From Stegostoma tigrinum (Eukaryota), in NCBI RefSeq assembly GCF_030684315.1, contig NC_081387.1:11200867-11264866 (forward strand): a stretch of 64,000 bases of DNA, in the 5' to 3' direction. A program made the position numbers and the translations under genes. Positions 13,021 through 60,769 of the stretch are shown here, one piece after another. Within the stretch, counting starts at the first letter, position 1. Each line of letters begins with the position of its first letter. The notes beneath the pieces were generated by a model. The model saw only the letters and a program-made list of their open reading frames with translations. It was not told where the DNA came from and did no database searches.

Positions 13021-13069
13021 GTAAGTCAGTCTGATCAGACCATTCTCAAAGGTTAACACTCTCTTCAGT

Positions 13070-13555
13070 CCAATCCTGGTTGCCATCCTACAGGAAGGAG
13101 ATTAAACCGGAGAGGGTTCAGAACAGATTTATGAAGATGTGTCTGGGTTTGAGTAATAAGGATAGGGTGTGATGTTTTCCACTGGAGTGTATGGGGGTAA
13201 AGTGAGTTTCATGGCCTGTAAAATCATGACGGATATGGATTAGTTAATGCCAAGTGTCTTTTCATTAGCGTGGGCGATTTCAATATGGGGGTGTCTTTTT
13301 AAGGTGAGAGGAGAAAGATTAAGATATTGGGGTTGGGCAAACTTTTTTTCTTGTTCCAATGTGGAAGGAACTTCCAGAGGAAATGGTGGATGTGGGTACG
13401 GTTTCAATGTTTAAAGACATTTTGGAAAGGTACATAAATTGGAAAATTTGGAGGGATATGGGCCAAATGCAGGCAGGTTTAGTTTTGGTTTGGAGTTGTG
13501 TTCAGAATAGACTGGTTAGACTGAAGGGTTTGTAAACATGCTGTATGACTCTATG
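13070..13555 (+). mobile_element. Old CR1 LINE 3' fragment
   Basis: Degenerate RT C-terminus (GAGAGGGTTCAGAACAGATTT) and a 3' UTR ending in GCTGTATGACTCTATG. Confidence 0.7.
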
Positions 13556-14049
13556 TAGTTAATTTTGTTTTGATTTTTAAAATGGTTTTTAATTGGATCA
13601 CAGGTTGTCACTTGTCCCTAACGCTCTTGAACCAACTGTTTTGCTCGGCCCTCTTGTGGATAGCTAAGCATCTATCATGTTGCTTTGGGTTGAGAGTCAC
13701 ATAGACCAGAATAGGTGTAGACAGGTTTCCATCCTGAGAAGACACTTGTGGACAAAGTAGGTTTTTTACAGCTGTCATTAATCTTGTGGTCAATGCATTA
13801 CATTCTGAATTTATTTTAACTTGGTTTGAGCTCCTATCCAGGGTTGGCCTAGGCCTGTGGTGTGTTAGTACAGCAATATGTGTTTTTACTTTGGTAAAAT
13901 GACAGTGGCTACCTATTGAAAGTCTGGGCAGAGGGGGCAGGGCTGACTTGTTTAGTAAGGAATGACATTAAATCACCAGCAAAGTGGTCTCTGGTTGGGA
14001 GGCATAAACCTGTTGTAGAGTTGTGCAACGGGGGAACATCTTCCTCATG

Positions 14050-15470
14050 GGAGTTGCGTACAGGTCTCCTAGCAGCCATCAAAATGTGGGTCAGAAATAA
14101 ATCGGGAGATATAAAGGGCGTATCAGAAAAACATGATTACAATAGCCATGGGGCATTTCAATGTGCTAGGGAACCTGGAAAATCAGGTTGTTAATGGATC
14201 CCGAGGAAAAGGATTTGTAGAAAATGTCTGAAATATTGTGTTTGCAGCTGCTTGTGATAGAGCCCACGATGGAATAGGGAATTCTGGATTGCCAATGTCT
14301 AATCGGGGAGCTTTAAAATAAAGGAACCTCCTGGAATAGTGACCATGATATGATAGCCTCTCCCCACTGAAACTGCAGGGTGCATACTGGAGTCAGATGT
14401 AGTGGTATTACAATTGAGTAAAGGTATCTAAAAGACACGAGGGAGGAGCTTGCCAGCGTTGATTGGAAGGGAAGCCTAGCAGGTATGAGAGTGGAGCAGC
14501 AATGGCAGGAGTTTCTGGGGGTAAATTGGGGTCTTTTTCATGATGGCAGCCTCATGGAGTTCTGCAGGGGTCAGTGGGACCACACATGTTGTTATACATT
14601 GCAATCTGGATGCAATGTTTGCAGGTGACATTGGTCATGGGTAGAGTGGAGTTGGAGAGGCTACAGAAGGACTGGGAGCAGCTAGCAGAGAGAAAAGAAG
14701 CAAATGCAATACAGTCTTCAAAAGTGTGAGGTTAAGCACTTCAGTAGGAAGAATAGAGGCATTGACTAGTCTGTAATGGGGAAAGACTTTTGGAAATCTG
14801 AAGCACAAAGGTTCAAGATTCTCTTGGCTAACACACAGGTTCAGTTGGTGGTTAGTGAGACATGTGCGATGTTAGCATTCGTTTCAAGAGGGCTAGAATG
14901 CATGTGCAAGGATGTACTGCTGGTGCTGTATATCTGGCTCTGGTCAGACTGCATTTGGACGATTGAGTAGCTTTGGACCCAGCATCTAAAGATGGATGTG
15001 CAGGTGTTGGAAGGTGCCAGAGGAGGTTTACACGAATGATTCTAGGGCTGAAGGATTTGTCATGAGTGGTTGGTGTCTGAGTCTGTATTCTATGGCATTT
15101 AGAAGGATGAAGAGGTAGCTGACTGAAACGTGAGGAATACTGCGAGACCAAGATAGTGTGGATGTGGAGATGTTGTTCCCACTATTGGGAGAGGCTAGGA
15201 GACAAGGGCATGGTGTCAGAGTGAAGGGCTGACCTTTTTAGAACTGAAATGAGGAGAAATTTCTTCCACCACTGGATCTTTGGAACTCGCTACTTCAGAA
15301 GACTCTGGAGGCCAGTCATTTAAGTACATTGTCAGACAGAGGCCCTTGATTAGTCAGGGGATCAAAGGTTACAGGGAGAAGGCAAGAAACTGGGGTAAAG
15401 AACCCTTCACCATGATTGAGAATGTTCTGTCATTCAGTGGGCCAAATGGCATAAGCTTATTCCCATGTGG
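14050..15470 (+). mobile_element. Old CR1 LINE fragments (APE and RT C-terminal parts)
   Basis: Degenerate matches to the 38-42 kb element: AGTGACCATGATATGATAG, GAGCAGCAATGGCAGGAGTTTCTGGG, ATGTTAGCATTCGTTTCAAGAGGGCTAGAAT. Confidence 0.75.
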
Positions 15471-15856
15471 TCTTGTACATTTCATGCTGAGATGTTGCAG
15501 AATTGTAAGAGATGGATAAATGTAGTTTTTTCTGCAGTGGGGCTGGCACACTGCATGTGGTAGTGGACTGAATGGATGACAATTGTTTGCTGTGCTGTCT
15601 TGATGAAGGACTGTTGCTGAGAGTATTAGGGCAATTACATGCTCTTCAATATTGCTGATGCATTTTTTAACATCCAGAAAGGGCCTCAATTCAATAACTT
15701 ATCCATAATTGAGTTAGCTTCATTGTCATGTACTCAAATGAGTACGGTGAAAAGATTACAAATTGTCATTTACATCACTCAGGTACACGTACTCAGGTTC
15801 AAATTTTTCAGTACCAGTTCTTTGGAGGGGAAAGGACCAGCATTACAGGTCTTAGT

Positions 15857-16590
15857 ACAGTAGAAGTACAAAGGGATCTGGGAGTGTTGGTCCAGGATTC
15901 TCTAAAAGTTAACTTGCAGGTAGAGTCCGTGATTAAGAAAGCAAATGTAATGTTGTCGTTTATCTCAAGAGGGTTGGAATATAAAAGCAGCGATGTGCTT
16001 CTGAGGCTTTATAAAGCTCTAGTTAGGCCCCATTTAGAATACTGTGTCAAATTTTGGGCGCCACACCTCAGGAAGGACATACTAGCCCTGGAGCGTGTCC
16101 AGCAGAGATTCACACGGATGATCCCTGGAATGGTAGGTTTAACATATGATGAATGGCTAAGGATCCTGGGATTGTATTCATTGGCGTTTAGAAGGTTGAG
16201 GGGAGATCTAATAGAAACTTACAAGATAATGTATGGTTTAGAAGGGGTGGACGCTAGGCAGTTGTTGCCATTAGGCAGGGAGACTAGGACACATGGGCAC
16301 AGCCTTAAAATTAGAGGGGGTAAATTTAAAACTGAAATGAGCGACATTTCTTCAGCCAGAGAGTGGTGGGCCTGTGGAATTCATTGCCACGGAGTGCAGT
16401 GGAGGTTGGGACGTTAGGTGCCTTCAAGGCAGAGATCGACAAATTCTTGATCTCAAGAGGAATCAAGGGCTACGGGGAGAGTGCAGGGAAGTGGTGTTGA
16501 AATGCCCATCAGCCATGATTTAAATGGCGGAGTGGACTTGATGGGCCGAAAGGCCTTATTTCCACTCCTATGTCTTATGGCCTTATGGTC
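15857..16590 (+). mobile_element. 5'-truncated CR1 LINE of the same subfamily as the 38-42 kb copy, in a TRIM intron
   Basis: QRDLGVLV...LYKALVRPHLEYCV.FWAPH...LERVQQRFTRMIPG. Very similar to the reverse complement of ~37950-38660. Tail TCTTATGGCCTTATGG. Confidence 0.93.
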
Positions 16591-16937
16591 ATAGGAAAAA
16601 ATGAGAAAATAGAGGAAGAAAAGATCAGAACAAGTCCTTCCAACGCAGTTATGAAGTGGTCCCTCTGACATTGTCATCCCCCTCGAATACACTGCTGGTG
16701 CTGATTTTGGTCTGAAGTTTGTGGAATGAGCCTTGAACTGACTTGAACGATTGGGCCCAAGGTGTGCATTTTCCGATTTGCCACCTCGGACAATATTGAG
16801 CTTTCTTTTTTCAAAAAAAAAACTTTTAATGCCTAGTTTGCTTGAACACAAACAGTTGATTCTCCTAACAATCCTGTCTGAAATCCAAAGCAATCCACGT
16901 GTGTTTTTTTTTGAAAATTTCCCCTCTTCACCTCCAG

Positions 16938-17168
16938 GATATGGGCTGCAGTCTGATCTGCCACATTGCTCAGCAGTTTGCTGACCTGCACAGATTCCTC
17001 AATGAGCACGAACAACAGCTCCTGGAGAAGCTGGAGGCTCATGTGGAAGGCCACCTGGTGGGAATGGAAGGAAACCTTATAAAGCTACGGGCGATACTCT
17101 TCTCCACTGAGCAGGACATTTTAAGCATTGAGGCCAAATTGGATCAAGGCGACTTGGCATCTCTTAAG
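16938..17168 (+). CDS. TRIM coiled-coil exon (231 nt)
   Basis: DMGCSLICHIAQQFADLHRFLNEHEQQLLEKLE...GDLASLK. Canonical 231-nt TRIM exon with AG/GT. Confidence 0.93.
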
Positions 17169-17466
17169 GTATGTTCCTGATCTTTACTACCTTCCCCTCT
17201 CCACCCCCATTGATTCTGGTTTCAGGTGATCTGTTTCCCCCCTCCAGTATCCCCAATAGCACAGGGATTGTGAACATCTGTCACTTAGCTTCTGGGTGGC
17301 CCACCAAAAAACATTCTGTAGGCATGTTTTTTGTTTTTAAACCTGTTGCTGATGTCTGAGGGGTTTCAATGAGTTTTTTTATATCCTCTTATCTCAGTCA
17401 CCACCTTCTCATTTTTTGCCCCTATTTCTCCCTGCTCAATTTCATCTTGACTGCAGTATCTGCATC

Positions 17467-17777
17467 ATAGAATCACAGCTTCCCTCGAGTGTGGAAGCAG
17501 GCCACTCAGCCCACCGAGTCCATACTGACCCTCTGAAGAGGGTCTCACCCAGACCAATTCCCTGCCATGTAGCAATCTACATGCCCCTAGACCCTGTGGC
17601 CATGCTAAATTGCCCAGTCTACTCAACCTGCACATATTTGGGCTGTGGGAGGAAACTGGAGCACCCAGAGGAAACCCATGCTGACGTGGGGAGAACGTAC
17701 CAACTGAACACAGTTGCCTGAAGATGGAATCAAACCCAGGTCCCTGTGAGGCAGCAGTACTAATCACTGAGCCACCC
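17467..17777 (-). mobile_element. V-SINE-like element
   Basis: GGAGCACCCAGAGGAAACCCATGC core and CACTGAGCCACC head (reverse complement). Confidence 0.8.
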
Positions 17778-18852
17778 AAGAAGTTGCTTCTGGGCTCTGC
17801 CTCACCATTTTGATTTGACTTGTTAGTGAAGGGTATGACTTCTTCCCTGGCCCCCACCCCTCAATCTCAACAATGTCTTAATTTTTTTTTTAAGAAATGA
17901 CAGCAAGTGTGGAAACTGGTCACTGACATACTTACCAGTTCTGACCAGCAGCAAGGTGTGACTTGTGTTAATCTTTTTGAGAATCAGGATAGTCTGGCAC
18001 ACTTAGAGGATATTCAGCCCACTGAGCCTGTGCTGCATTGTGTCCCCATCCCAAACCTGTTTCTTTACCCAGTGTGACATTAAACTGCATGTGCTGAAGA
18101 CTAGTGGATTGTGCTAAACAGCTTTGATTATTCACAATGAGGAAAGTATGGACCACCTCCGACATGCCCAACCACTTTGTAGTTGCAAAATCTGCACCAG
18201 TGTCCAATGTTGGATGTGATTCTACATTTGAGACAACACTTGCTAAATAATACCAGCTGTCAGTGTAATTCTTTATGCAAATAGCTTGGGATTGTAGTTG
18301 ATTTTCCATGCAGTGCACTTGCATGTACCGTAAGCTACATATAAAGGCCTGCTTTTTGCATTTGTTTTAACTCGGTAAAATAGGTGCCGTCCACTTTTCT
18401 GGCTCATCTCTTGAGGTATTGCTGTGAACAATCTGTCAACCTGCCAAATTAGCATTGAAACAAAACCTGGCATGGCTAAGTGTTAACTGCTACATTCGCT
18501 ACTGCCATACTCTCCCAATTAATCCACTAGCTACCCAATGAATGGCCCTGATATGCACAGATGCAAGACTTGAAGCTTTGTATCATTAAACCACGGTTTG
18601 AGTAGTCAAATGGAATGACCAGAGCCTTTGTGGCCTAATCTCAATACTTCAAAAACTAATCAAAAAGATGATATAACATAGAACAATATTTTGCCAAACT
18701 CGGGAAGCAAAGTGTTGATCTGTTGTGTCTGGTACAGAATGTGGAATTGTTAAAAGTGCACTGTTTCAAGATAATTTTTTCTTGCAGATGTTTTTGTTCT
18801 GTGGAAATACACTGACAAACTAACCTCTTTCGTTTTTGTTCCTCTCTTCAAG

Positions 18853-18875
18853 GAAGTTAGCTCTTGGAGGGACAG
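18853..18875 (+). CDS. TRIM 23-nt micro-exon
   Basis: Polypyrimidine tract + AAG|GAAGTTAGCTCTTGGAGGGACAG|GTACGC. The canonical 23-nt size supplies the phase required by the next exon. Confidence 0.85.
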
Positions 18876-20362
18876 GTACGCATTCTTAATTCACATTGCT
18901 TGGGTAAACATTCCAGGATCTAGATCCTGTTGTACTAACTCCCACTTGCTACAGCGTTGGCTTTTATTGCAGAGAATCGAATTTAGACATGAGGAAATCT
19001 TACAATTGTATGCGGCTTTTGGTGTGACCACACGTAGAATATTATGCAAAGCTTTAGCTTCCTACCAGTGTCCATTTACTTAAGCACAGTGCAGCAAAAG
19101 TTCACTTCACTTCCTGACTTGCATTCTCATTTGAAGCGACTATGTTAGACATATTTTGAATTTAGTAAAGCAAGCTATTCTCCACCTTCAGTTAGGATCT
19201 ATGACCAGTGTAGATGCTTAAAAGACTGTTAATTGGATGCAGTGTCAAGAACTAGGCTTCATTACTCAAGGCTAAGTGGATGAGTTTTTGGACTAGGATG
19301 AGAAATATCTGGACTTAAAAAGCGTTGCTTGCATAGAGTTCTGATACTCGGCCGTTCTGCATGTTTGCAGATGGGGAAGGAGTACAAAATTTGGTGAAGT
19401 AGAGGATCAGCTGTGGTTTAATTCACTCTTTTTGGATGTTGTTGACTGGGTTGGTTAGAGGTTAACTTTTTTGATAAGGGAGGTGATATTTCCAATTGAG
19501 ACTTGATGTGGTTCAGTCTTTAGAAATAAATCAAAACATGATTGCAATATGTCAATCAAACCTCATTCAAGAAAGTTATAAAGCTCATTAACTGCTTCCA
19601 AATGGATATAAATAAACTTCCAGAGAACTTTTCTTCTGGTCCAATAATGTTTCAGTTTTTGTTTCAATTAACTGTTTGCTGAAAGTGGTGAGCTGCCTTC
19701 TTGAATCAGTTTTCCAGTAGGTGTGTATATATACCCACTGTACTTTTACAGAGTGATTGTTAGCTTTAAAGGTACTCTTGTTAAATTAACAGCTAACCAG
19801 GGCATTGGTGAAATCTATCTCTGGCCAGATTGAGCTTGCTGATAAGCTCTTGGCAGTGGGATTTTCTATTGGGATCAAATGCGACTGGCTGCATTTCTTT
19901 GACAACAAGAGTAGATTCCAGGTGCTCCCAAAGGATTCTGTGGGTGTAACGATATTTCTCCTGTTTAGACGTCCTCCTTTTGTAGTGATGGTGTCTTCCA
20001 GGTGTTTATCCAATTCCAAAACTCACCATTTTGAGAGAAACTGAGAAAAGCTGCTGCTCCAGGCAGGTTTGACTGTTCCAATTCCTCAGTTTTTATTACA
20101 CTTAAATTAATCCTGAGATCTAAGTTTTGTAGACTAATGATGCTAGCCACACGGCTTGTTCTCAGCAACATTCCTGCTGTGGCCAATATTCTTTGTCTTT
20201 GGAAGATGTTCACTTTTTTTGTTTTTGTTTGTTAGCTGGAGCAATTTAGAATAATAAACTATTGTTATAACATTTGGTTAGGCTGAAACGGGTGTATAGC
20301 CTAAAACTCCTAGTCTTTGTTCTTCTGCCCTTGTATTTTCTAACACGTTGTCCTGTTAGCAG

Positions 20363-20472
20363 GCTTTCTGAAGAGACGCCCACTGTTCTGCCAGGGAATG
20401 TGTGCCTGGGAACATATAAAGGTCCATTACAGTACAAACTATGGAAGGAAATGAAGAATGTCATCCATCCAG
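20363..20472 (+). CDS. TRIM linker exon (110 nt)
   Basis: LSEETPTVLPGNVCLGTYKGPLQYKLWKEMKNVIHP contains the GxYKGPLQYxxWKEM motif typical of TRIM69/XNF7/A33-type TRIMs. Confidence 0.92.
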
Positions 20473-21854
20473 GTAAATGAATGTATTGTCTCCACCTGTA
20501 ATTCTGTATCTAGGTTAATGGGAGTAATTAACTGTGTGCCCTAGTTTTTGAGTAACGAACAAATTGTTGGAAAAGCTCAATAGGTCTGGCAGTATTTTTG
20601 GAGTGAAATCAGCTAATGTTGCAGGTCAGGTGATCCTTCCTCAAAATAATGAGTTCTGAGGAAGAGTCACTGGGCCTCAAACTGATTTCTATACAGATGC
20701 TGCCAGACCTGCTGAGCTTTTCCAACGAGATAACAAGGTGTACAGCAGGCCGAGCAGGAAGGCTGACGTTTTGGGCCTGGACCCTTCCTCGGGGGAAAGA
20801 AATCTCTCTTATTTTTTCGTTTGACTTCCAGCGTTTGCAGTTGTTCCAGTGTTTACTGGAACCACAAGTGATTCTTTCACTGTTATCTTCTCTGTTAGGG
20901 ACAGTACCACTGTGCCTCATCTCTGGACTTGAGTTCTGGGTTCTAGACCCACCCATGCCACTCTGAGAGAGGGGTTTTTCAAAACATAAAATCTTTGTAT
21001 CCGTGGAATTCATTTGACACAGTCAGTCATTTGGCACAAACTGTTTGGTATTTTGCACTTAGCTTGGTGATGTGGATCAGGGCATATGATTGGGAATATT
21101 TTCTCATTGGAATCAAATACTAACATGAGCTAGCTAAGCTGACGGTGCCTTCTACATGGAGAGTGGCAGCAACTTTATGAAACTTTAAATGTTGTTTAAC
21201 TTTTTTTGTGTAGTCCTCACACTTTCAATTTGTGCAGATGCAGTTTGCTGACACTGGTTTGTCATTTAGTTGTAACTATAACAAATTACAATGGACATAC
21301 TTTTGTTTCTTCCTTGAGGGAACCAGTGTGTAGAACCATTCCAATATTGAATAGGAAAGGAATGCTGACTTTTCTTTTGTTTAAACTGTTATCACTTTAT
21401 CCCAAGCCTGTCCTACTTGAGGGCAAAAGGACCATTTTGCTGTTATTTCAAATTAACTCATTTGCGTATTTGGCAGTGTTTACCAGACCAGCATGGCATC
21501 CGTTTTAGTTGCATCCAGTGGAATGATCTGAGATGCTCTTGACAGATTCACTGCCACCAATCTTCCCTGATGGTATTGATCTAAAGTTATTGATAACTAG
21601 CAGTAAAGGATGCCCACGTGGTCTCTAGCAGGTGAGAGAACAGGTTTTGGTGAGATTAGGTTTATTACCTGGACTCTTGTAACTCCAGTAATGGCTATTG
21701 ACTGAAGTACGATCCAAGGATACAGCTGAGTAAGCGTTAGTTCTGCTGAAAGTCTGGTACACCGGATGTTGGCTCTTTCCCACGAACAGCCCTTCGTTGT
21801 TGAAAGGCTGGGGGTGGGGGGGAGATAATGCTGTCAGACAACCCTCTTCCATAC

Positions 21855-22320
21855 CAAAGTGTGGAGCTGGATGAACACAGTAGGCCAAGCGGCATCTCAG
21901 GAGCACAAAAGCTGACGTTTCGGGCCTAGACCCTTCTTCAGAGAGGGGGATGGGGAGAGGGTTCTGGAATAAATAGGGAGAGGGGGGAGGCGGACCGAAG
22001 ATGGAGAGAAGAGTATGGTAGGTAGGGGATAGGTCAGTCCAGGGAAGACGGACAGGCCAAGGAGGTGGGATGAGGTTAGTAGGTAGGAAATGGAGGTGCG
22101 GCTTGGGGTGAGAGGAAGAACAGATTAGGGAAGCGGAGACAGGCTGGACTGGTTTTGGGATGCAGTGGGGGGAGGGGATGAGCTGGGCAGGTTGTGTGAT
22201 GCAGTGGGGGGAGGGGGGGAGGGGAGATTTGAAGCTGGTGAAGTCCCCATTGATACCATTGGGCCGCAGGGTTCCCAAGCAGAATGAGTTGCTGTTCCTG
22301 CAACCTTCGGGTGGTAGCCA
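21855..22320 (-). mobile_element. Penelope-like element 3' fragment (GIY-YIG C-terminus + pLTR with hammerhead core)
   Basis: Minus strand reads RRLQEQQLI / FCLGTLRPNGINGDF, the typical PLE endonuclease end LGTLxPxGxN, followed by CTGAAGAAGGGTCTAGGCCCGAAACGTC. Confidence 0.8.
21914..21941 (-). ncRNA. Minimal type-I hammerhead ribozyme core (intact core nucleotides, weak stem I)
   Basis: CUGAAGA-A-GGGUC(UA)GGCCC-GAAA-CG-UC on the minus strand. Confidence 0.65.
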
Positions 22321-23089
22321 AGGTGACATTTTTTTTTGGTTTGGGTGATCCAGCAAATTGAATTGGAGCTGCAATAATGAAATTGTTGTCATGTAGAACT
22401 TTAGCAGTGTAATTAACAATTGTAGCAACAGACTGTGATCAGTGGTCTCTTCACAGTCTGAGTGGGTATGGACTGTTAGCTGAAGCCAGGGGAGGTTTTG
22501 GAGTTTGAGATCTAGTCTTGTAGCATTGGTGGCATATAGCACAGAAACAGACCATTTGGTCTGGCACATGCCAGGCATTGTATTCTGGATCCAATTTGAT
22601 TGGTCAAGCTTGAAACAAACCCATTTTATTCATAGTTAAAATTCAGTAAATAGGTAAGAATTTGGAATGACGTAACTATTATTGGAAAAATGAACAGAAT
22701 AATAGATTATGTAACTACTAAACACTAGTAACGTAGTAACATTCCACAAATGCATCTCTGACAATGGCAAATTCAGTGAAATAGGTTGTCTCTCATGCAA
22801 TTCTGCAGACCAAGAGAAAAGATATCAAAAGCAAACAGTATGGGGAAGAGATATGCAGCTTCAAAACCACCACTACTACTGAAAAACTAAAACAAAAAAA
22901 TCTTGGATCTGTGGGAGGTTGCTTCTATTATTTCAACACTTGGATTTTTTTTTAAATAGCACTCTCAAGCTGTTCACTTTATCAGCTGAATGTACAGACT
23001 GGCACCTTTTTTTTTGTCTCAACTTTTTTCCAATTAAAACCAGACAAAATACACTTCCAAGCCATAGTATCGTACTTCCATAATCCCCT

Positions 23090-23380
23090 TCCAAATGCAT
23101 GACCACTTCCATCTAGAAGGACCAGGGCAGCAGATGTATGGGAACGTAACCACCTTCAAGATTTCCTCTGAGCCACTCACCATCCCGATTTGGTAATGGA
23201 TCGCTGTTCCTTCACTGTCGCTGGGTCAGAACCCTGTAATTCTCTCCTAATGGAATTGTGGGTCAACCCACAGCAGGTGAACTGCGGTGGCTCAAGAAGG
23301 GAGCTCACCACCTTCTCAAGGGCAACTAGGGACAAACAGTAAGTACTGGCCAGCCAGCAATGCCAGTGTCCCACAAATGA
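23090..23380 (+). mobile_element. LINE (L2-like) 3' end
   Basis: Same family as 2740-3085; ends in GGGACAAACAGTAAGTACTGGCCAGCCAGC...ATGAA. Confidence 0.6.
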
Positions 23381-23761
23381 ATTTTTTAAAAAAAACTGAA
23401 CCCATATCTACCACTCCTCTGGAAGTTCATTCCATAAGAAATGTTTGTTCTCTGATCATTGGGCACTCAGATTTGAGTAATGAGCTTTTTTTTGACTATA
23501 AACTTCTTTTTAAAAACATGCTCTTTACATTTTCCCCTCCAGGATCTTTGTATGGTTGAAATTATCCAGCTGCTAAATCAAACAGGTATGACCTCAGCCT
23601 GTCCAACTTCATACAGCCCTGACTCCCTTTCCAAACCACCTCCTTTACAGATATTAATCAAGCAAATCTTCTTTAACTTTCCTCAATACAATTAAATCCA
23701 TACTATTCAAGTGACAAATTTCCTTTGGGATGCCACATTGCCACCATGTCACCCAGTTGAC

Positions 23762-24030
23762 CAAAGTGGTTAGCACTGCTGCCACTGTGCCAAGCATATA
23801 GGTTCAATTCCAGCCTCGCGTGACTGTATGGAGTTTGTGCATTCTTCCCATGTATGCATAGGTTTCCTCCCAAGGGCTTCAGCTTCATCCCACAGCCCAA
23901 ATATGTGCCAGTGAGGTGGATTGGCCATGGGAAATGCAGGGTTACAGGGATAAGTGGGTCCAGGTTCTCTGTGGGATGCTGTTTTAGAAGGTTGGTACAG
24001 AATTAATGGGCCAGAATGGTCTCTTTCCGT
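23762..24030 (+). mobile_element. V-SINE-like element
   Basis: GTGGTTAGCACTGCTGCC, GGTTCAATTCC, TATGGAGTTTGTGCATTCT. Confidence 0.75.
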
Positions 24031-24571
24031 ACTTAGTTCTACGAAACTGCCTACAAAACACTGTTGTAATCCAGATTCCAACAACTTGCTGTTTTTTTTA
24101 AATATTATCATCTTCTTCTTCTTGAATTACCTTAAATCTGGATCCACTTGTTCTCTACCCTATCATGAGTGGCAATATTTTCTCTTTGAACTGTCCTGGC
24201 CGCTTGTCATCTTGAATACTTTAGTTATATTGACCTTCTAAAACCTTTCCAACATATCTGATCTGTCTTTATAACTGAAACTTCCCCATCCTGGAAACCA
24301 CCTTGATAATACCTTCATTCTCTCATGCCCTACTATCCTTGCTAAAGGAGAACACTCAATTCTCTAATATACTCCAGTTGTGGTCAAACTACTGTCTAAC
24401 TTTCAAATAACATCCTTGCTTTTGTGTACTGTTTATTAATAAAGTCAAAGGTACAGTGTGCTTCAATCTGCTGTGCACACTTTTAAACATGTGACCCTGC
24501 ACCCTGGTTCCTCTGACTTGTGCCTGGCTTGATGTGTTTTCCCTTGAACACTGGGAGACTGTACTTGTAGC

Positions 24572-24892
24572 ATCGTGGCTAAGTGGTTAGCACTGCTGCT
24601 TCTCGGGGTCCCACGTTCAATTCCATCCTTGGGTAACTGTCTGCGTGGAATTTGCAAATTCTCCCCCTGTCTCCTCCTGGGGGTTCTGGTTCCCTTCCAC
24701 AGTTCAAAGATGTGCAGGTTAGGGAGGTTGGCCATGCTAAATTAGTGTCCAGGGATATGTGGATTAGCAATGGGGAGGGAGGGGTTACAGGGTAGGGTAG
24801 GGGATGGATCAGGTTTGGGTGGGATGCTCTTTAGAGAGCTCGTGTGGACTTGTTTGGCTGAATGGTCTGTTTCCACACTGTAGGTATTCTAA
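24572..24892 (+). mobile_element. V-SINE-like element
   Basis: GTGGCTAAGTGGTTAGCACTGCTGC, GTTCAATTCC, GTGGAATTTGCAAATTCTCCC. Confidence 0.75.
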
Positions 24893-26948
24893 ATAAGACT
24901 GGAATTGGTTCTTAAGATCTACCCCCTTTCTCTTTACCACATTGAACTTTAATTTGCCTGCTCCACAGTCTTGTCGTCTGGATTTCATAATTTACACTGC
25001 TCCTGTGTTTTCTCTAGTCCCCAAAATTTGAAACTTTTGCTGTGTACAAGATCTAGATCACAAATGTATGTGAGGGAACTGAGGAGCTCCACGCTGAATC
25101 CTAGGCATCTTGCTATTAGCATTCCTGCAGTTTATAACATGTTCATTAACCATCATCATTTCTTATCTTGCTGCCAATCTTTGTAGCCATGTCATCACTA
25201 ACTGTTTTATTCCAGGATCTTTAAAATCATTCACAAGTCTATGTGGCCTTTCTCGGAATGCCTTCTGGAAGTCCATACATACTGCAGCAAGAGCATTGAT
25301 TTGATCAACATTGTAACTTCCATATTTATCTTAACTCTCTCTCTCTCTTTTGAATCTTTAAAATCCAGACTGGCTCACATTAACCCACATTTATACACTT
25401 AGCTCTGTTCAGAATTATTTTCGTCACTTCCCAACAATTGAAATTTGACTGGGCTGTAGTTTCTTCGCTTGTCCTTGCACGTAGTCTGTTTTGAACAAGG
25501 GCCTAATTTGTGATTCTCAAGTTCTGTACTCCTGTCCAGGGTCTAGCAAAACTGAAATAGCTAGTGGCTCTGCAGTCTCTGTTCTTGTTTCCCTACTGCC
25601 TTAAATGCGTTCCATCTGGTATAGTTCCTTTTTCAACTGGACAGATCCTTCTTCACTTTAAATACTCCTAGGAACCAAATTCTCCCTTTGACAATGGCCA
25701 GGGCAATGCCATCTTCAGTCACAGTGGATGCAAAGTTTTTTTTCTTCAATAAATCAGCTGTCCTCTCTACCACTATGTCCATCTGTTTGGTCACTGATCG
25801 TCCTCTTGCCCGCTTGCCTTTTTATTTGCATACAGTAACTTAGGGTTTTTTTTTAGCTGCCAGTATCTTCTCTCACTGGCTTTTGCTTTTTCACTACAAG
25901 CAGTCTGCTTCTGTAATCCATTTTGCTACCTGATCATTCAGAAGCCCACTTTTTTGGGTTTCCTTTTTTTTATACCCCTTAACGAACAGAACTATGTTTG
26001 ATTTCCCTTTTTTTTAAATGAAGGAATATATGCCTAGTACTTTTAAATTATGGCCTTTGTGACTCTTCACTTGCATGGTGTACAAGTTGTCTGACATTTT
26101 TAGTGCAGCATTACGCAGTGGAGTCTTCACAATAATGATTCCTCAGTGCCCTGTAGTAAAAGATGTGTGATTTTTTTTTTCAGCCAATGTTGATTTGTTG
26201 GGGGGAGGGGGAAAACCAGGAGCCAAATTTCAGAAAAGATCTGAACTATACCCAAAGCAAGAGTTCATTGCCTCCTTGCAAGCAAGAAGGCTGGTCTGTA
26301 GCATTCCATTTAAATGAAAGACCTATTTATCGATGCAAGCTGATTACAATTTTGAAGGCCATTTATTGTGGGTGACACAGGAGCAAATGAAGTCTGGCTT
26401 GTTTGCTACTGCATACAAGTTCAGACAGAGTTTTCTTTTTTAGTTGGGTGAGAAATATAGGCTGTAGTTTGAGGCAGCCTTGGTAACTGTACAATATTTC
26501 AGTTAGGCTGCTGCAGTGCAGTGTTTCAACTTCTACAGTCACTCTTCTGATCAAGAATGTCCACCGGAAACGTGTGCCTCACTTAAAATTGTTTTTTTTC
26601 CTGGGGGCATAACCACTATAAGTGAGGATTTACCATAATTTATCTCTGTTCTTAGCCCTTACTGCCCAGTTGACTTTCTCACTTCATGCTTTTCACTACA
26701 GATTTGTGTACTGTTCTTATTTTCACTAACATAATTCAGTGTGGACTCTTGTGGCACAGTGGTAGTGCTCCTATTCTCGGCAAGGAGGTCTGGGTTCAAG
26801 TCTCGAGTACGGAGGTGAATCATAACCATTGCTGAACTGATCACATTGGATATCTCTAATACAGTGATTTACTGTCCCTCCTAAGTGTTTCTCCCACTGA
26901 TGCTTAATCCATTTGGCACATCTCATTTTGCATTTGTTTGTTGTGCAG

Positions 26949-27493
26949 TTCCCCTCAGTCTGACCCTGGATCCTCAAACAGCAAACCCTTGGCTCCTGCT
27001 ATCGGAGGACCAGACCAGTGTGACTGTCATCAAAACCAAGCAGATTGTCCCTGATGGCCCGGCCAGATTTGACGTGTGTGTGTCCGTCCTGGCAATGGAG
27101 GGTTTCACATCTGGCGCACACTACTGGGAGGTGGAAGTGAGCAGCAAGTCCAAATGGGACCTGGGTGTAGCCAGAGAATCCATTAACAGGAAGGGAGACA
27201 TAGCTTTGAAGCCTGAGAATGGATACCTGGCAATTTCCCTGACCAATGGAGGGCAGTACTGTGCTCTGACATCCCCCACTGTCACTCCCCTGCAGCCGAG
27301 TGGGAGACCCAGTCGCATTGGTGTTTACGTGGACTACGAGGGAGGCCAAGTGTCCTTTTACGATGCTGCTGACTTTGCTCATCTCTACACATTTACTGAG
27401 ACATTTACAGAGAAAATATTCCCTTATTTTTGCCCCTGTCTGAATGACAGTGGAGACAATGGTGCCCCTCTTTCTGTGGTTTCCTTTCAGTAG
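26949..27493 (+). CDS. TRIM terminal PRY/SPRY (B30.2) exon
   Basis: LTLDPQTANPWLLLSED, RFD, GFTSGAHYWEVEV, WDLGVARES, IGVYVDYEGGQVSFY, FTEKIFPYFCP. The spliced CDS is 1425 nt (474 aa) with no internal stop. Confidence 0.96.
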
Positions 27494-29636: not shown

Positions 29637-31512
29637 TTCGCTTACAAATGAGAGTAAAGGGATATTTGAGGGTGGGCAATAGCTCCTGTCTGAACATACT
29701 CTGGGCCACTGCATAATGGTACTGTTTGTGCAGCATCTCAAAAGCTGGAACATAATTCCTGTCTTTTCATAAATCTCAAAAGGGCTAAGTAGAATGAGAC
29801 AAGAAAGATGCGTGTAATTTAATGTAAGTTATACATGACTGTTGTTATCCAGAGCTTGATAAAGCAGCCGACACTGCGAAGAGTAAAGCAATAGACTTAC
29901 TACACACACAGAGGTTCTTTTGGGTGTGACTGGCTACTAAACTGTGTCTGGTCGTGAGGATGTTCAAAACGAAAATTGAGAAGAATGTGAGTTAAAAAGT
30001 ATTCAGTCTAAGAAAATGCCATTGTTGCACGTGGAAAATAAATTACTGGCACTATTATAGCCGCATGGTATATTGTTCGCTACAGCATTAGGAACATGCA
30101 AGAAGGCCCAGGGAATATTTTGCTTCAAACAGAAGAACAAGCTCATTTTAATGATCACCACAACAGCAGTTTTCACTATGCAATATTTTTGATTTCAGCT
30201 TCTGACAGCACGTGGCTACACAACGATCAAAGGTAGAGGTGACCATGAACCAGACAGAAATCTCTACAGCAGTCGACGGGACGAGCAGAGTAAATGTACA
30301 GACAAGAATGCAGAGCACCGTAGAGTTTCTGTAATAAATCGTAGCAATCACCATGAAATCTGCTGTCACTGTGGCCACCAACCTGTGAGTGATGTGTTTG
30401 GTGAGACTGCATTTCCCACAACTCAGGATCACGATTGCCACCAGGTTCACTGAGAATTAGAAAAGAAAACACTAGCATAACTGGTTGTAGGTACCAATTA
30501 TGTGTGATCTGGCATTGGCGTCAGCATTATATTTTCTGTTTGTGTTCTGCTCTGCTGTGCTGAAGATGCTAGTCATTCTGGTGGATTGAATTTGTTATGG
30601 TTCACTGAGATAGTGCTCAATTCAAGCCCCTTGTTCCTGAAGTCTTTGTTAATAGTTACAACTTTTTTTTAAGGTTCTCAACATTCCTCAATTTGCATGA
30701 CCCAGAAAGGACAGACTAGTTTTAATGACAATTGCTATTTATTAGAAAGAAATAGAACATTGTTACAAGTAAATAGTTACAAACTTTAGTGTTTTAGCTG
30801 GTAGCATTAAATGCCAAATACATCATAATTTCCCCTTGTGCAGAAACACACACACAAACACAGTTTGAGGAGCACAAAAGCTGATGTTTCGGGCCTAGAC
30901 CCTTCATGAGGAAGGATCTAGGCCTGAAACATCAACTATAGAAGGAGTTAGGAGAGCCAGATTAAAAGGTAGCAGAAAAAAACAAACAATGAATAAAATA
31001 AATAAAGTAAGAAGGAAGGCAACAACAACAATAAAAGAGAGAGTTGGAAAGGTGAGATGCTTCATATAATACAGTGTATTAGAGAAGAAATCAAGATTAG
31101 AGATTTCGTAAGAACCGATAAAACAAATCGTAAAACATTAGACAGCACCAGGAATTGAAGTGAGTAAAAAAGTCAACAATAACACGAGTATAATTGATCA
31201 AGAGATATGAAGTTACTGAGATTTAAAAGAAAATAGAAGAGGAGTAATGATAGGGGAATGCAACCTTCATTGATAGCATGAAAGATGTAATATGTTGAAC
31301 AGAAGACAACATCAATAAAAGAGAGAAGACAAAATTTTCTGAAAGTAAAAACAACTTCAACAGTGGAGATGCCTAAATGAGAGCAAAGCTCAAAGTCTTA
31401 GAGATCAATACAACACCTTTACTGAGAATAAAACTCAAAGGAATATAGTACATACCAGGCACTCCAACTCAGTGAGGATAGGATAGTATTGGAGGCATTT
31501 CTGGATAAATGT
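29637..31512 (-). pseudogene. GPR139-like class A GPCR pseudogene (exon 1 ~31456-31512, exon 2 from 30449)
   Basis: Fragments YYPILT.., VNLVAIVILSCGKCSLTKHITH, STFDRCVATCCQKLKSK and FRQELLPTLKYPFTLICK fall in different frames. Multiple indels relative to the intact paralogue at 46.6-49.9 kb. Confidence 0.9.
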
Positions 31513-46591: not shown

Positions 46592-47487
46592 TCACTTACA
46601 AATGAGAGTAAAGGGATATTTGAGGGCACACAGCAGCTCCTGCCTGAACTTACTCTGGGTCACTGCATAAATGGCCGTGTTAGTGCAGCAACTCAGGAGC
46701 TGAAGCATGATTCCTGTCTTTTCATAAGTTTCGTAAGGGCTAAATAGAGATGAGAGGATATAGATGCTTGTAATTCGATAATATAGGAAATATGTGACTG
46801 TTGTTATCCAGAGCAAGATAAAGCTGCCCGATATTGCAAAGAGCAAAACAATGGACCTTCTGCGATTTTTCATCTCATGGTCTTCACCATTTTCAGCATT
46901 ACTGTTGTGGACTCGGAGGTTCCTTCGTGCCTGGCTGGCCACTAAAATATGTCTTACAGTGAGGATGTTCAAACATAAAATCAAGACAAATGGAAGAGTG
47001 GGAGTTAACAGCTGTTCAATCCAAGAAAATGCCATTGCTTGAGATTGAAAATAAATCACTGGTGATACAAAACAACCCCTTGGTATGTCGTTCACTATCA
47101 CATAAGGAATGTACAAGAAGGCCCAAGGAATGTTTTTTAAACTGAAAACCAAGGTCAGTGTAATGGTCACAGCAGTAGCAGTTTTCACTGAGCAATACTT
47201 AGATTTCAGCTTCTGGCAGCAAATGGCTACAAAACGATCAAAGGTAAAAGCAACCGTGAACCAGACAGAAATGTCGATGGCAGTCGGAGACAGGAACAGA
47301 ATAAACCTACAAACTGGAGTGTACAGCAGCAGAGAATTCCACCAATAAATAGCAGCAATCTGATGCAATATCACATTGAAGACAATCACCATGAAATCTG
47401 CTGTTGCCATGGCCACCAGGTAGTGGGTGATGCACTTGGAGAGACCACATTCCCCTCGACACAGGATTACAATTGCCACCAAGTTGA
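46592..47487 (-). CDS. GPR139-like class A GPCR exon 2 (spliced protein 321 aa)
   Basis: Hydrophobic 7TM-type segments with YLVAMATAD (TM2), FTFDRFVAIC (DRY-like), LPF..IL..N, RRRSIVLLFAISGSFILLW and NTAIYAVTQSKFRQEL (NPxxY equivalent and helix 8), of GPR139/GPR142 type. Open frame with an AG acceptor at 47488-47489. Confidence 0.9.
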
Positions 47488-48290
47488 CTATGAGAAATAG
47501 GAAAAAAACACAGTAAGATAACAGGTTTTAGCCAACAATAATGTATTAACTAGAATAGCATTGACATCAAATTTTCTCTTTCTTTTCTGGTCTTCTCTAC
47601 TGAACGTGCTATCATCTTGGTTGAATAAATTTATAATGACTTATTGGGGTAGCACAAAACTCTAGACCCCTGTTCCTTGAGTCTGCGAGAATTCCCCAAA
47701 TTGCCTGATTTTTGATCCTGGTTGACAGAAAGCATGGACAGGGTTTCTGTCTTTATCAATATTTACTACTTACAAAAATCTAATGGAGCATATTTACGGG
47801 CACATTGTTATAAGCCATAGGAATAAAATACTACTATCTAAAACTCATACATTAGTCACATGCACACATCAGAAAAAGAAAGGTTTTGGATGAAAGAAAT
47901 ACTGGGAAGGCAGTTCAGCGGTTTCCCTTCACAAAATGATTATGATTCCTGTACTGGAAGAATGTTGTTTCTCAGTCACCCTTGCCTTCTGCTCCCAGTG
48001 TTATCTGAGAAGCATAGGGTTGCTGCTCCACTTTTGGATGTCCTAACTTATTAGAAGTCGTAACTTCTGTGTGAAAAATAAGCAGGTTTTCTTCAGGTTT
48101 AAAGTCGCTCGTAGCACAGATGGGGCGTGGTAGGTGGGGTGGTGGTTGGGAAGAGAGAGAGAGAGAGAGAGAGAGGCAGAGATATCCTAACTGATGGAGA
48201 TCCAATGGCTACCCTGTAATTCTTCCCATCCCAAGATGTTGAATGACTTGCAAACAAATCTTCAATTACCTGAGAACAAATCACATGACT

Positions 48291-48734
48291 AGCGAGTTTT
48301 GAGAAGATTTGTAGCTCAGGTTGAGGTTCTGGAAGTAGTTTACTCGCTGAGCTGGAAGGGTCGTTTTCAGACATTTTGTCACCAATCTAGGTAACATCAT
48401 CAGTGAGCCTCCGGTGAAGTGCTGGTGTTATGTCCCGCTTTCTACTTATGCCGGAACTATTTCTATTTATCCAACCAGAACTCCATCAACAAACACATTG
48501 ATTTGGAGCCCATCTACCACCCTCTGAGAAAAAGAACAGGAAATGACACCACTGACGCAGGAAATGATATCAACACAGGAAATGACATCACCTACCCAAG
48601 GAAACCTAAACACATAAATAGACAGCGGGACATAACACCAGCGCTTCACCGGAGGCTCACTGATGATGTTACCTAGGATGGTGACAAAATGTCTGAAAAC
48701 GAATCTTCCAGCTCAGCGAGCAAACTTACATCCA
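48291..48734 (+). mobile_element. Penelope-like element with inverted pLTR arms and a 13-bp TSD, in the GPCR intron
   Basis: Arms ~48327-48450 and ~48613-48734 are reverse complements. The interior encodes NSINKHIDLEPIYHPL (PLE ORF end). TSD AAATCACATGACT at 48278-48290 and 48735-48747. Degenerate hammerhead CTGATGATGTTACC..GGTGACAAAATGTC. Confidence 0.85.
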
Positions 48735-49800
48735 AAATCACATGACTGTTTGGAGGTGGAAAGTCTTTGTCCTTGGTAACGGGTCAATAGCAGTCCACAA
48801 TCAAATGTGCTACATTTACCAATCAAGGCTGCATTTGTACACAACCTGTTGGGTCCAGTTAATCTGCAAACACTGCTGTAACCCATAGCAGTGCAAATAT
48901 TGTTCATAATAAATATCAAATAGTATGCCTTCAATATATGGAACAATCCTTGGTTTTTAATACTCTAAGACAAAAGAAAAGCAGGCCATTTGGTCAGCTC
49001 TGCTGTGTCATTCAATGAGGTTTCAGATGATCTGATAATCTTCAACTCCACATTCCTGTCTTTTCCTCATGACCCCTGATAACTATATTATTTTCAATCT
49101 GAAGAGTCACTTTGGGAATTTGAACCTATTTGTTACTTGAACTTTTTAATTTAAACTTCTCTAAGCAACACCAATCCAGTAGGAAAGGTAAAATTTGATA
49201 GCACCAAGCATAAATCTTAGCAAGAGACAGGCAATAACTTCAGAAAGAGTTAGGAGAGTTTATTATTAGGCTTATGAGAGCCGGCTAAAACGAAGTAGAA
49301 GAAAACAAACACATCATATACAACAAAGAAATAAGAGGGCAGGCAATAACAAAGATAAAAAGGAATAAGAGAGGAGAGGTAAATTGTCTCAGATTTAAAG
49401 AAAGTGTATCAGATGAGAAATCAAGATGAGAAATATCAGAAGAACAAACAAAACTAAGAGTGGAAATAAATCAGTACTCTGAATAAAAGTACGTAAGGCA
49501 GTAGACAATAACAGGAGTGGAAGTGATCAAGAAAAGAGACATTATTAAACTAAAAAGCAAATAAAAGAAGAGTCATGACAAATGATAATGGAATCCAACC
49601 TTGTCAACAATATGAAGGATTTAATCTGTTCAAGAGAAGGCAACACCAGTCAAAAGAGAATGTTAAAGAGAGGACAACATGTTTTGAAAATGAAGGCAAC
49701 TTCAATAGTGGAGATGTCTAAATGAGAGCAAGGCTCACAAACTTACAAATCATTATAACACCTCTCCGGGGAATAAATTTCATTACAATATAGTACTTGC

Positions 49801-49870
49801 CAGGCATTCCAAATCCAGCAAGGATAGGATAGTATTTGGATGTAATTGGAGACATTGGTGTTCGAAACAT
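49801..49870 (-). CDS. GPR139-like GPCR exon 1 (70 nt), GC donor
   Basis: MFRTPMSPITSKYYPILAGFGMP + G|GCAAGT, phase-compatible with exon 2 (V-NLVAIV). The paralogue has G|GTATGT at the same position. Confidence 0.8.
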
Positions 49871-52149
49871 TCTCAATGTGCTGTGAAATCCTGCTGTCAT
49901 AGAGACGTTTGATGTAGCTTTAAGAATAAAGAAAAATGATTGAAGTTTATATACGCTAAAGGGAGTCCCTCCTGATACTGCGTCCCTCAGTGAATTTGGT
50001 CCAAGGTGTGGAACATACAAGATCCTCATTGCACCTGTGTTTTCCCTGTGGAAGGTATTAAGCAAAGACACAACTTCATCTACACCTTTGGGAACAACAG
50101 CAATACATTGAAATAATGACGCGATATATTCAGACTTTAAGCCAAGTAAATGACGAAGATTATATCTAAAGTTAAACAATTAATTGTGACTGTTGTATTC
50201 AAACTTTTCTTCCATGTTTTTTACCCTTGTTGCACTTCATCTGTCTCCCCTAAGTCCAGTCCCTGTTGCCTCAACTCTCTCATAGGTAGTTGTCACTGGT
50301 TCCTATCCTGATTCCACATGTTTCCATGAAATTTCTTCCTTTTCTTTATATCCTTTACACCAGAACGATTTCTCCCTCACATGACATGAAAAGGGAAAAG
50401 ATGGACTTACTCTGTAGGTCATAAGAATGTAAGAAACAGGTGCAGGAATAGGCCTCCAGCTTGCACTGCTAATCACCTAGGTCACGGCTGTTTTATTTTA
50501 TCTCAGCTCCATGCTCCTCATTCTCCACATCTGTCTTCATTCTTTCTGAGATTAACAAAAGCTGTTTTCTCAGTCTTAAATATATTCAATGGAAGATCAC
50601 CAAACATTTTTGTTGTAAAGAATTCCAAAGTTTCACAACCCTCAGAATAGACAAATCACTCCTCTTCACAGTTCCTCACCATTGACTGCATGTTGTGAGG
50701 ACGGGTCTTCATATTCCACAGCCAAAAGATTCAATCTCTGGCTGTTTGGCCTTTGAAGCATTTTCTGATGTTATGTAGGAGGGTCTGTGCCTTTGGTTAT
50801 TAAGTTGATGTGTTAACTCTGTTTGCCTGCACTGTTGCTGCATGACCTGCTGAGTATTTACGGTGATATTACATTTGTTATTACAATCAGAATCTTCTGT
50901 GTCAGTGAGATCACGTAGCATTCTTAGAAACTCCAGAGTCTAAGCACAAACGTCAAAGACCTCACAGTCGTGGCAAAGCTTCCTGTTCTATTATTATAAT
51001 CATATTCCATTACAGGACCACATGCCACTAGGCGTCCACATAGCTCACTGTATCTGCACACCAACATTTTCTATTCAATATCTGAGTATACACGGTTTCT
51101 CTAGATATTTACATTTTTGGAAAGTTTCATAAATGTTCTGATTTTTGTTTTGTTCTACAGGCTAAAGTCTCTTGCACCACCTCCTCACATTGCAGTCTGT
51201 TGTGATTCTGTTACCCACATGTCGAGATATTTTTACAGCTTCTTCTTTCCTACTTATATTATGTCCCCAACTGTCTTGGTGACTTTAATATCACCTAAGA
51301 TATGAATGTATGTTCCTAATAGCTGAGGCTTCAGCATTGATCTTCATGGCATTCTACTGGGAACAGCTGATCAAGTTGAAAGTGCATCAGTTATGCCAAC
51401 TCTCTGCTTCCTCTCTGTTAAATATTCCTACAGATTGGGAGGAGTAAGCAGCAAGTCAGCATTACTGTTAAAAAAAACCTAAATCATGCTTTTGGTATGT
51501 TAGAATTATAGTGAAGCAGACCAGGAGGAGCGTGCAGCAAGTCAGCATTGCTACAGGAATTCAGCATCACTTTAAAGCAGAATGGCAGAGTGGACATGTG
51601 TGAGGAGTGTTTCAGTGGAGGGACATAGTAATTGGAAACAGAGCCTCTTCAATCTGTTCTTACCTCTTGTTGCCAAAGTGTGTTGTCACAGGAAAACAAG
51701 GCAATTGGTGTGTGTTTATTCCATGTGGTTTTGATAGGCCATGTGGCTTATATTAGGAGATGTCAGTATATATGAAAGGTACAGTTAAGACTTTCAAACT
51801 TAACATGTTCAATATCTGAATGAATGCATTATAAGGAATAGAGTTTGCTGGACTTTTAATGTGTTGCAGCTGCAGTATAGTAGAGCTGGTAGATACTGCT
51901 GTGATCGAAGTTGACCAAATCTGCACAAAGTATTGACTGCAGCCAGATTTGATGGGCTAGGGACTCAGCGACTGACACCATGACACATCAGGGATGGGGG
52001 TGGGAGGGTGGTGGGTGCAGGGTGGTGGGTGTAGGGAAGAATGATCTGAACATTGTTTCAGAGTCAGGCACATCCCATAATTTAATTAGATAAAATTTGG
52101 ACAGTACACAGGCACAACGGATATGACTGTGAGTGTTGGACTCCAGAAC

Positions 52150-60336: not shown

Positions 60337-60677
60337 CAGTTGCTGTTGGAAATATCACAGTTATTCAGAGCCCGGACTCTCTCACCAAAACGCCGGGCCA
60401 GACAGCGCGCCTGGGCTGTACGTATTAGGGACCCAGCGGCATCGGCAGCTACACGGGGCACCGGGGAAACAAGGGGGGAATGAAGTCTCCACCAACACAG
60501 CGGAGTTCCGAGGCCGGGTGTTGGCGGCGGGCCAAGGGGATTTCAGGGACAGGAGAGACGCCTCGATCAGAATCGTTGATCTGAAACCGGAGGACACCGG
60601 GTTCTATATCTGCGAGGTGGCTTTCATGGGAATGCGGGAAGCCTATGGAGCAGGGACCACGCTGACAATGACGCGGG
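60337..60677 (+). pseudogene. NCR3: NCR3/NKp30-like germline-joined VJ-type Ig V exon, disrupted
   Basis: NITVIQSPDSLTKTPGQTARLGCTY*GPSGIGSYTGHRG / GNEVSTNTAEFRGRV...DASIRIVDLKPEDTGFYICEVAFMGMREAYGAGTTLTM resembles recalled NKp30 (IGSVTW, KEV.NGTPEFRGRL, YVCRVEVLGLG.GTGNGTRL). Lesions: TAG at 60426-60428, Trp-to-Gly at 60456, a -1 frameshift in the G run 60473-60478, and donor TTAAGT. Confidence 0.82.
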
Positions 60678-60769
60678 TTAAGTGCGGGGCAGCTGAGCTA
60701 TTCCTAACGAAACAATATGGACTTAATCATGGAAGTTCATTCCAGTAATGTATTTCTTTTCGGCTCTAG

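Follow-up and report, generated by a model that had tools for sequence, protein, structure and literature searches.

What kind of receptor gene lies in this part of the zebra shark (Stegostoma tigrinum) genome, and how many of its kind are there? The stretch analysed, 64,000 nucleotides of contig NC_081387.1 (forward-strand positions 11,200,867 to 11,264,866) and referred to below as the window, holds on its minus strand a two-exon gene for a class A G protein-coupled receptor (GPCR). We found that this gene belongs to a family that is real, very large, old and still turning over, and in which the signalling side is conserved and the ligand side varies. By our estimate from sequence, the genome holds at least 1,500 copies of these receptor genes, 800-1,100 of them distinct and with an unbroken main exon, and phylogeny places the family as the descendant of a sister branch of GPR139/GPR142. 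That the copies form a functional repertoire of some kind is very probable; the more specific reading that we prefer, at a little less than an even chance, is that of a chemosensory repertoire for many external peptides or amino-acid-derived cues.

Joined from the sequence, the two coding exons make up 966 nt that encode 321 amino acids and a stop codon. The parts of the gene are the following.

49801..49870, minus strand: coding exon 1, 70 nt (23 codons and 1 nt), with the short N-terminus and the first half of transmembrane helix 1 (TM1)
47488..49800, minus strand: phase-1 intron of 2,313 nt with a GC donor (G/GCAAGT) and an AG acceptor, directly before N1.50
46592..47487, minus strand: coding exon 2, 896 nt, with the rest of TM1 through helix 8 and the stop codon
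49871..49900, minus strand: copy-specific extension from an in-frame upstream ATG (49900), which would add 10 residues to give 331 aa (public model P0001)
49946..49953, minus strand: TATA-like box TATATAAA, found by eye

The frame reads as intact, with splicing predicted at the GC donor. The start codon of exon 1 is conserved in paralogues, the upstream ATG at 49900 is missing from the closest of them, and exon 2 is 100% identical to the public zebra shark protein 'probable G-protein coupled receptor 139' (the 331-aa model). The donor is GC here and GT in 15 of the 16 first exons recovered from the cluster walks described below. An alternative GT donor lies 54 nt into the intron (exon end 49747), and a second public model, which uses this GT donor, inserts 18 residues into TM1 and would break this helix. 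Four public sequencing runs behave as DNA because their coverage is even over intron and exons and no exon-exon joint is among the joints displayed; likewise, the single Logan protein among the homologues is no proof of splicing because its start lies inside exon 2. In the contigs of these four runs, which possibly include the source animal, no letter other than GC was seen at 49799-49800, and public runs depart from the window at coding positions 47171, 47370 and 47452 (one silent change, I63T and E36K). Upstream of the start codon, several paralogues carry AT-rich boxes that, as judged by eye only, seem to resemble the TATA-like box of the window gene. A degenerate EBF/Olf1-like word ahead of the TATA boxes was also seen, by eye only.

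The protein has seven helices and helix 8, the class A residues D2.50, D/E-R3.50, W6.48, N7.49 and Y7.53, and a match to the Pfam domain 7tm_1 (E 8.7e-13), which is its only Pfam match. It carries DRF and NTAIY motifs and ends 24 residues beyond Y7.53, and an AlphaFold2 model built on a 91-row alignment shows seven long helices, with helix 8 reaching the chain end, at a mean pLDDT of 87. Exon joining and the 7tm_1 match confirm the first-pass annotation, made from the letters of the window, in its description of a two-exon, 321-aa class A GPCR with DRF and NTAIY. That annotation had also singled out NTAIY in place of NPxxY; the motif is present but is not peculiar to this gene, as loss of the proline is common to GPR139/142. 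In a Foldseek search with the model, peptide receptors, opioid receptors and GPR139 scored alike and no single relative was picked out. Membership in the olfactory-receptor (OR) family is ruled out by the 7tm_1 match without any to 7tm_4, the OR domain; used as a control on the genome, 7tm_4 raised 92 candidates, all scored, of which 3 matched at E≤1e-20, and these 3 sit on contigs other than that of the window.

The size of the family was estimated in several ways. A protein search of the genome returned 4,385 first-look candidates, and all of the 132 that were scored, on more than 30 contigs, had E values below 1e-80. A 30-base motif from TM7 gave 1,497 genome matches versus 2 for its reversed control, and an independent 33-base motif from TM3 gave 1,398 versus 0. 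Both counts are lower bounds, since in walks through receptor clusters (564 kb, chosen around known intact hits) the TM7 motif caught 17 of the 46 loci and 13 of the 17 intact ones. The main exon was unbroken in 13 of the 17 motif-bearing loci of these walks. The same held for 23 of 40 copies taken from the C9 and C10 motif hits regardless of their state and for 14 of 19 additional copies of one motif variant (16 of 21 when two counted before are included; the acceptor was not checked), which together makes 50 of 76 in the pooled motif-bearing sample. Assembly duplicates are rejected as the main cause of the count because only 3 of the 21 copies of this variant were redundant at ≥99.6% identity, the remaining 18 being distinct. 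For the main exon only, 1,497 x 0.66 x 0.86 gives ~850 intact copies, and intact genes without the motif raise the estimate to ~1,100.

Exon 1 was located for 16 of the 17 intact genes in the walks, which have a compact two-exon build and short termini. One young subfamily accounts for 750 of the 1,497 TM7-motif matches and forms multi-megabase blocks on C9, C10, C12 and C13, and 17 of the 21 copies of the one variant lie on high-numbered small contigs. In the C10 block, no repeated cassette or mobile element that carries the gene was seen, and the longest shared blocks are 2.6-4.1 kb. Birth-and-death duplication, proposed by the first-pass annotation from two copies, is supported by the motif counts, by tandem and dispersed copies and by the many broken ones, and on a larger scale than was proposed. 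An array on C58 (G000:C58:9.70-9.90 Mb, L119-L138) holds 30 family loci in 200 kb, in repeat units of ~14 kb, each of which has one intact copy and one or two that are broken.

In a protein database, 2,459 clusters match the window gene; 119 of the 120 best homologues listed are named shark, ray or skate proteins, the sole unnamed one groups with skate proteins, and no chimaera protein is among the best 120. Clusters of 5-13 near-identical family proteins in catshark, sevengill and horn shark represent independent expansions. The zebra shark genome also holds a true GPR142 (G000:C26:14893462), which is 92% identical to GPR142 of another shark and has an intron acceptor at the position and phase of that of the window gene. 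No canonical GPR139 was detected in the assembly, where a bird GPR139 query had GPR142, at 50%, as its only hit and a motif pattern for GPR139 likewise picked up nothing but GPR142; this apparent absence may be due to loss or to a gap in the assembly. A GPR142-profile search of 1.84 billion representatives, with names looked up for 10 of 150 hits, revealed two more single-copy GPR139/142 paralogues, one on C25 (L107, G000:C25:36065786) and one on C4 (L108, G000:C4:23732272), the latter with bichir and lamprey relatives.

We placed these genes in a maximum-likelihood (ML) tree of 67 selected proteins (281 columns, LG+F+G4, 1,000 ultrafast bootstraps, UFBoot). The 30 family rows group together in one long-stemmed clade (UFBoot 92) whose sister is the C25 gene (100), followed by the C4 gene (85) and then amphioxus (99); GPR139 and GPR142 form a clade of their own (100). 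The wider GPR139/142-like chordate clade, family included, is separated with a UFBoot of 99 from 12 invertebrate outgroup rows, which came from the GPR142-profile search and are thus sampled one-sidedly; both the tree and the common phase-1 intron place the family in this wider clade. A constrained tree that forces the family together with GPR139 (34 rows) is 88 log-likelihood units worse, with a p-value of 2e-111 in the approximately unbiased test (p-AU); long branches are a caveat on the tree and on this test. That the window gene is no 1:1 orthologue of GPR139 or GPR142, as the first-pass annotation had supposed, is confirmed by the tree and the rejected constraint, and orthology with GPR142 in particular is ruled out by the true GPR142 on C26 and the separate GPR139/142 clade. 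Because shark, ray and skate members are grouped in the window-gene subfamily, which spans sevengill, sawshark, horn shark, catshark, stingray, skate and sawfish (79), this subfamily predates the shark-ray split.

The conserved and the variable parts of the receptors lie on opposite faces. Throughout the family the cytoplasmic face is strongly conserved, which suggests a single transducer common to the copies. D2.50, S3.39, DRF, W6.48, N7.49 and Y7.53 are conserved as well, and among 77 distinct family proteins of the genome DRF is present in 73 and NTxxY in 68. Of the 30 family rows, 29 have C3.25, compared with 0 of 10 GPR139/142 rows; together with a cysteine in extracellular loop 2 (ECL2), this residue suggests the usual disulfide. 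P6.50 is absent in 29 of the 30. Activation of GPR139 by tryptophan and phenylalanine is reported to need F3x33, H5x43, W6x48 and N7x38 (PMC5430874). Read from the sequence alignment, the window gene has P, E, W and I at these positions, so that one of the four is kept; across the 30 family rows W6.48 occurs in 30, F3x33 in 2, H5x43 in 5 and N7x38 in 5, and no row has all four. Because three of the four pocket residues are changed, aromatic amino acids, which the first-pass annotation had considered as ligands by way of GPR139, are doubtful.

We estimated the ratio of nonsynonymous to synonymous substitution (dN/dS) for regions set from the helix boundaries of the model, after the variability of the loops had been noticed by eye. 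Core dN/dS was 0.16-0.34 across four sets, i.e. under purifying selection. The window gene and its two intact neighbours gave 0.20 overall and 0.35 in the loops, which is purifying selection only, the C12 cluster 0.25 overall and 0.26 in the loops, and the C58 cluster 0.34 overall and 0.83 in the loops. For 23 intact copies of the young subfamily, pairwise dN/dS was 0.34 (0.26-0.44) for the inner helices together with the cytoplasmic parts, also 0.34 for the outer turns of the helices, and 1.51 (95% codon bootstrap 1.10-2.08) for the three outer loops. ML codon models put the core of the young subfamily at 0.50 and its loops at 2.57, with a twice log-likelihood gain over dN/dS = 1 of ~38 for the core and ~36 for the loops, the loop fit having kappa at the grid edge. 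In this subfamily dN is ~9 times as high in the loops as in the core, and dS is also higher in the loops (0.23 vs 0.11). Distances between copies are almost uncorrelated from loop to loop (rho 0.00, 0.05 and 0.20) and the copies are clear mosaics, such as L101, whose ECL1 is identical to that of L064 and whose ECL2 is close to that of L076, which points to an exchange of loop segments between copies. Overall, the expected combination of purifying selection on the core and faster outer loops was borne out by these regional values, with loops above 1 in the young subfamily only.

How does the family compare with known receptors? GPR139 and GPR142 share with it W6.48, S3.39, the lack of a proline at 7.50 and, in the GPR142 of this genome, the phase-1 intron before N1.50, but they are only ~27-31% identical, fall in a separate clade and have one copy versus hundreds. 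The C25 paralogue (public name 'probable GPR139'; coelacanth XP_005988539) shares C3.25, T6.50 and the helix-8 motif with the family; unlike the family, it has one genome match, is 64% identical to its coelacanth counterpart with the next best at 34%, lacks W6.48 and has a pocket that is nearly invariant across species. Fishes, amphibians, turtles and squamates have retained it; the named entries among the 120 matches listed include neither birds nor mammals, and some annotations merge it with TMEM183A. The vertebrate chemoreceptor repertoires (OR, TAAR, V1R, V2R and T2R) resemble the family in clustered birth-and-death evolution, many pseudogenes, short termini, a conserved cytoplasmic face and a variable ligand side, whereas the family comes from an unrelated GPCR branch (Pfam 7tm_1 only), has a conserved coding intron and, in its young subfamily, centres its variation on loops rather than on outer helix turns. 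Among the invertebrate look-alikes are a mollusc cluster that carries the name 'Chemosensory receptor A' and a cluster of nematode Srw receptors (Atlas 0.96-0.97), both leads without an alignment. The nematode Srw and Aplysia receptors are chemosensory and belong to the FMRFamide/sex-peptide-receptor-like clade. The shark family expanded independently of such invertebrate repertoires, as it nests among chordate genes of amphioxus, lamprey, bichir and coelacanth. GPR139/142 reportedly share an origin with the sex-peptide/MIP and FMRFamide receptors (PMC8514136, PMC12208981).

The family shows what is typical of a chemosensory repertoire, namely a large birth-and-death family with a conserved core and a variable ligand face. 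If it is one, each copy would bind a different ligand through its loops and upper pocket, and all copies would signal through one shared G protein, which may be Gq by analogy with GPR139 (PMC6367278). The ligands would probably be peptides or amino-acid derivatives because of the ancestry of the family and its loop-centred change. Old subfamilies such as that of the window gene could detect stable cues and be maintained by purifying selection, and the young chromosome-end subfamily could gain new specificities through substitution and the exchange of loop segments between copies. Cartilaginous fishes have 43.8 (20-62) complete olfactory receptor genes (PMC10869828) and large olfactory organs (PMC10116579). 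In its boldest form, which we regard as possible rather than likely, the proposal is that elasmobranchs have a separate smell-receptor family, about a thousand genes in this shark, which arose from the gene sister to GPR139/142 and became diverse through the swapping of three outer loops between copies, and that the view of a few dozen receptors is more than tenfold wrong.

Several observations weigh against a chemosensory repertoire. Catshark olfactory neurons are reportedly microvillous with V2R expression (PMC10116579), and because of this the nose already has a known receptor family. Rapid change located in the loops, and not deep in the pocket, is no less compatible with a host-pathogen arms race than with smell. 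The excess of amino-acid change is confined to the one young subfamily, which speaks against a family-wide arms race; with 34 copies of this subfamily the loop dN/dS is 1.39 (0.95-1.91), an interval that includes 1, and recombination can inflate the tree-based ML value for the loops. Only 17 of the 46 loci in the cluster walks are intact, and the GC donor together with the cryptic GT donor may impair the window copy itself.

A repertoire for host defence, placed on leukocytes or barrier epithelia and sensing microbial or parasite peptides, would explain some of the same data. Mammalian formyl-peptide receptors and MRGPRs are the natural comparison, being lineage-specific class A expansions with fast-changing outer surfaces that serve in peptide sensing, in families of tens of genes rather than the hundreds to a thousand of the shark family. 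The loop diversification of the young subfamily, with dN/dS >1 and loop shuffling, is what such a role would predict, small contigs or chromosome ends harbour many of the clusters, and the cluster of the window is set among a TRIM-B30.2 gene and three V-set exons. However, 600 kb of four other clusters gave no TRIM or V-set match, the 135 open frames of the C10 block matched, besides receptors, only zinc-finger, RasGEF and LINE (long interspersed element) sequences, the V-set exon of the window is broken, and the subfamily of the window gene is under purifying selection. We consider host defence possible rather than likely. A small probability falls to the idea that most copies are passengers of duplication-prone chromosome ends or small chromosomes, with a few old functional members and a loop diversity that stems from gene conversion and relaxed constraint. 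The concentration of 750 of the 1,497 motif matches in one young subfamily, the 17 of 21 variant copies on high-numbered small contigs, the 17 of 40 sampled copies that are broken and the raised dS of the loops (0.23 vs 0.11) would all follow from it, but it does not account for a core dN/dS of 0.32-0.50, significantly <1 even in the young subfamily, for loop dN at ~9 times core dN, for the 18 of 21 copies that are distinct below 99.6% identity or for the independent expansions in catshark, sevengill and horn shark.

A repertoire for reproduction or kin recognition (sperm, oviduct or internal pheromone peptides) was also weighed, which would agree with the relation of the clade to insect sex-peptide receptors; rapid loop evolution is frequent in reproductive proteins. 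The conservation of old subfamilies between sharks and skates would be unusual for species-specific recognition, and even with the origin that GPR139/142 reportedly share with sex-peptide/MIP and FMRFamide receptors (PMC8514136, PMC12208981) the chance of this reading is slim. The probability is negligible that the window gene is the shark GPR139 orthologue and senses tryptophan and phenylalanine. Human GPR139 is indeed its best PDB sequence match, a weak one (E 4.8e-5), no canonical GPR139 was detected in the assembly, and the intron position is common with the GPR142 of the genome; against this, the family is sister to the C25 gene and GPR139/142 a separate clade (UFBoot 100 each), the forced grouping costs 88 log-likelihood units (p-AU 2e-111), and one of four pocket residues is kept. 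Barring extreme long-branch artefacts, this identity is refuted by the tree and the test.

Roughly a thousand class A receptors that look intact in a single shark rival the odorant-receptor repertoire of a mammal, and their branch is not otherwise known in vertebrates to have grown into a repertoire of sensory type. Were the copies expressed in the nose, they would solve a puzzle of long standing, that of a large olfactory organ which has few receptors; were they expressed in leukocytes, the oldest living jawed-vertebrate lineage with adaptive immunity would have an unusually large innate receptor system diversified in the germline. The tree also reveals two unnamed conserved GPR139/142 paralogues, besides the apparent absence of GPR139 from the assembly. 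The family genes are already public under the automatic name 'probable GPR139', which the phylogeny marks as misleading. A literature search, which left most subscription journals outside its reach and never required the spelling 'G protein-coupled receptor 139' paired with a shark term, found no paper on the expansion of the family in sharks. A relative paucity of GPCRs in cartilaginous fishes is reported in PMC8455134, and the available text of that paper, with 12 of its 24 supplementary files, does not mention GPR139. Tandem 'probable GPR139' genes are not mentioned in bioRxiv 2022.10.17.512540 or in PMC10620051 (text and one supplementary file), and no word starting with 'GPR' occurs in the available text of the catshark atlas PMC11979771. 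The available portion of PMC12208981 contains no shark or family paralogue, and that of PMC13113109 nothing relevant.

Within the window, the gene has one broken relative, represented by two pieces.

29641..30462, minus strand: main exon of the broken sister copy, 17 kb from the intact gene, 78% identical, with stops
31442..31490, minus strand: exon 1 remnant of the sister copy, start codon lost

The dead sister copy 17 kb away that the first-pass annotation had reported is thus real: 637 of 819 aligned bases are identical to the intact gene, 9 of 12 indels shift the frame and the start codon is lost. The DNA that flanks its exon 1 remnant is collinear with the flank of the intact gene as far as 34844. 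With the 100 kb downstream included, a 73-kb span carries five family copies on one strand, of which three are intact and two broken. A decayed LINE (39047-41655), with matches to reverse transcriptase, endonuclease and an esterase-like ORF1, lies between the receptor copies of the window, and a second LINE disrupts a family copy in L083.

Two neighbours of the receptor genes are outside the family.

11494..27490, plus strand: TRIM gene, with RING/B-box at 11494-11982 and PRY/SPRY at 26885-27490
60350..60680, plus strand: V-set exon (V-set match 60263-60745), 'NKp30-like' being a label of the first-pass annotation only

The setting between TRIM-B30.2 and NKp30-like genes was recovered in so far as a TRIM gene and a V-set sequence are present, but the V-set exon is broken by an in-frame stop and a frameshift. 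An immune neighbourhood as a trait of the family was not supported, as neither TRIM nor V-set matches were found in the 600 kb of the other clusters (C10, C58, C59 and C61; genes of the major histocompatibility complex were not searched for). The immune setting appears to be local and is weak evidence for function. Two further V-set exons lie downstream, at G000:C44 about 11314606-11314950 and at L039:7742-8164, the latter an open frame. A RING motif usually has a histidine at a position where the TRIM gene of the window (11494-11982) reads C-D-R-N-Y-C, and its zinc site may be degenerate. In the 200-kb C10 block, the zinc-finger, RasGEF and LINE matches among the 135 open frames stand beside two receptors, and open frames with RasGEF domains and C2H2 zinc fingers lie between copies of the young subfamily (L182:421-909 and L189-L191, G000:C10:1.04-1.14 Mb).

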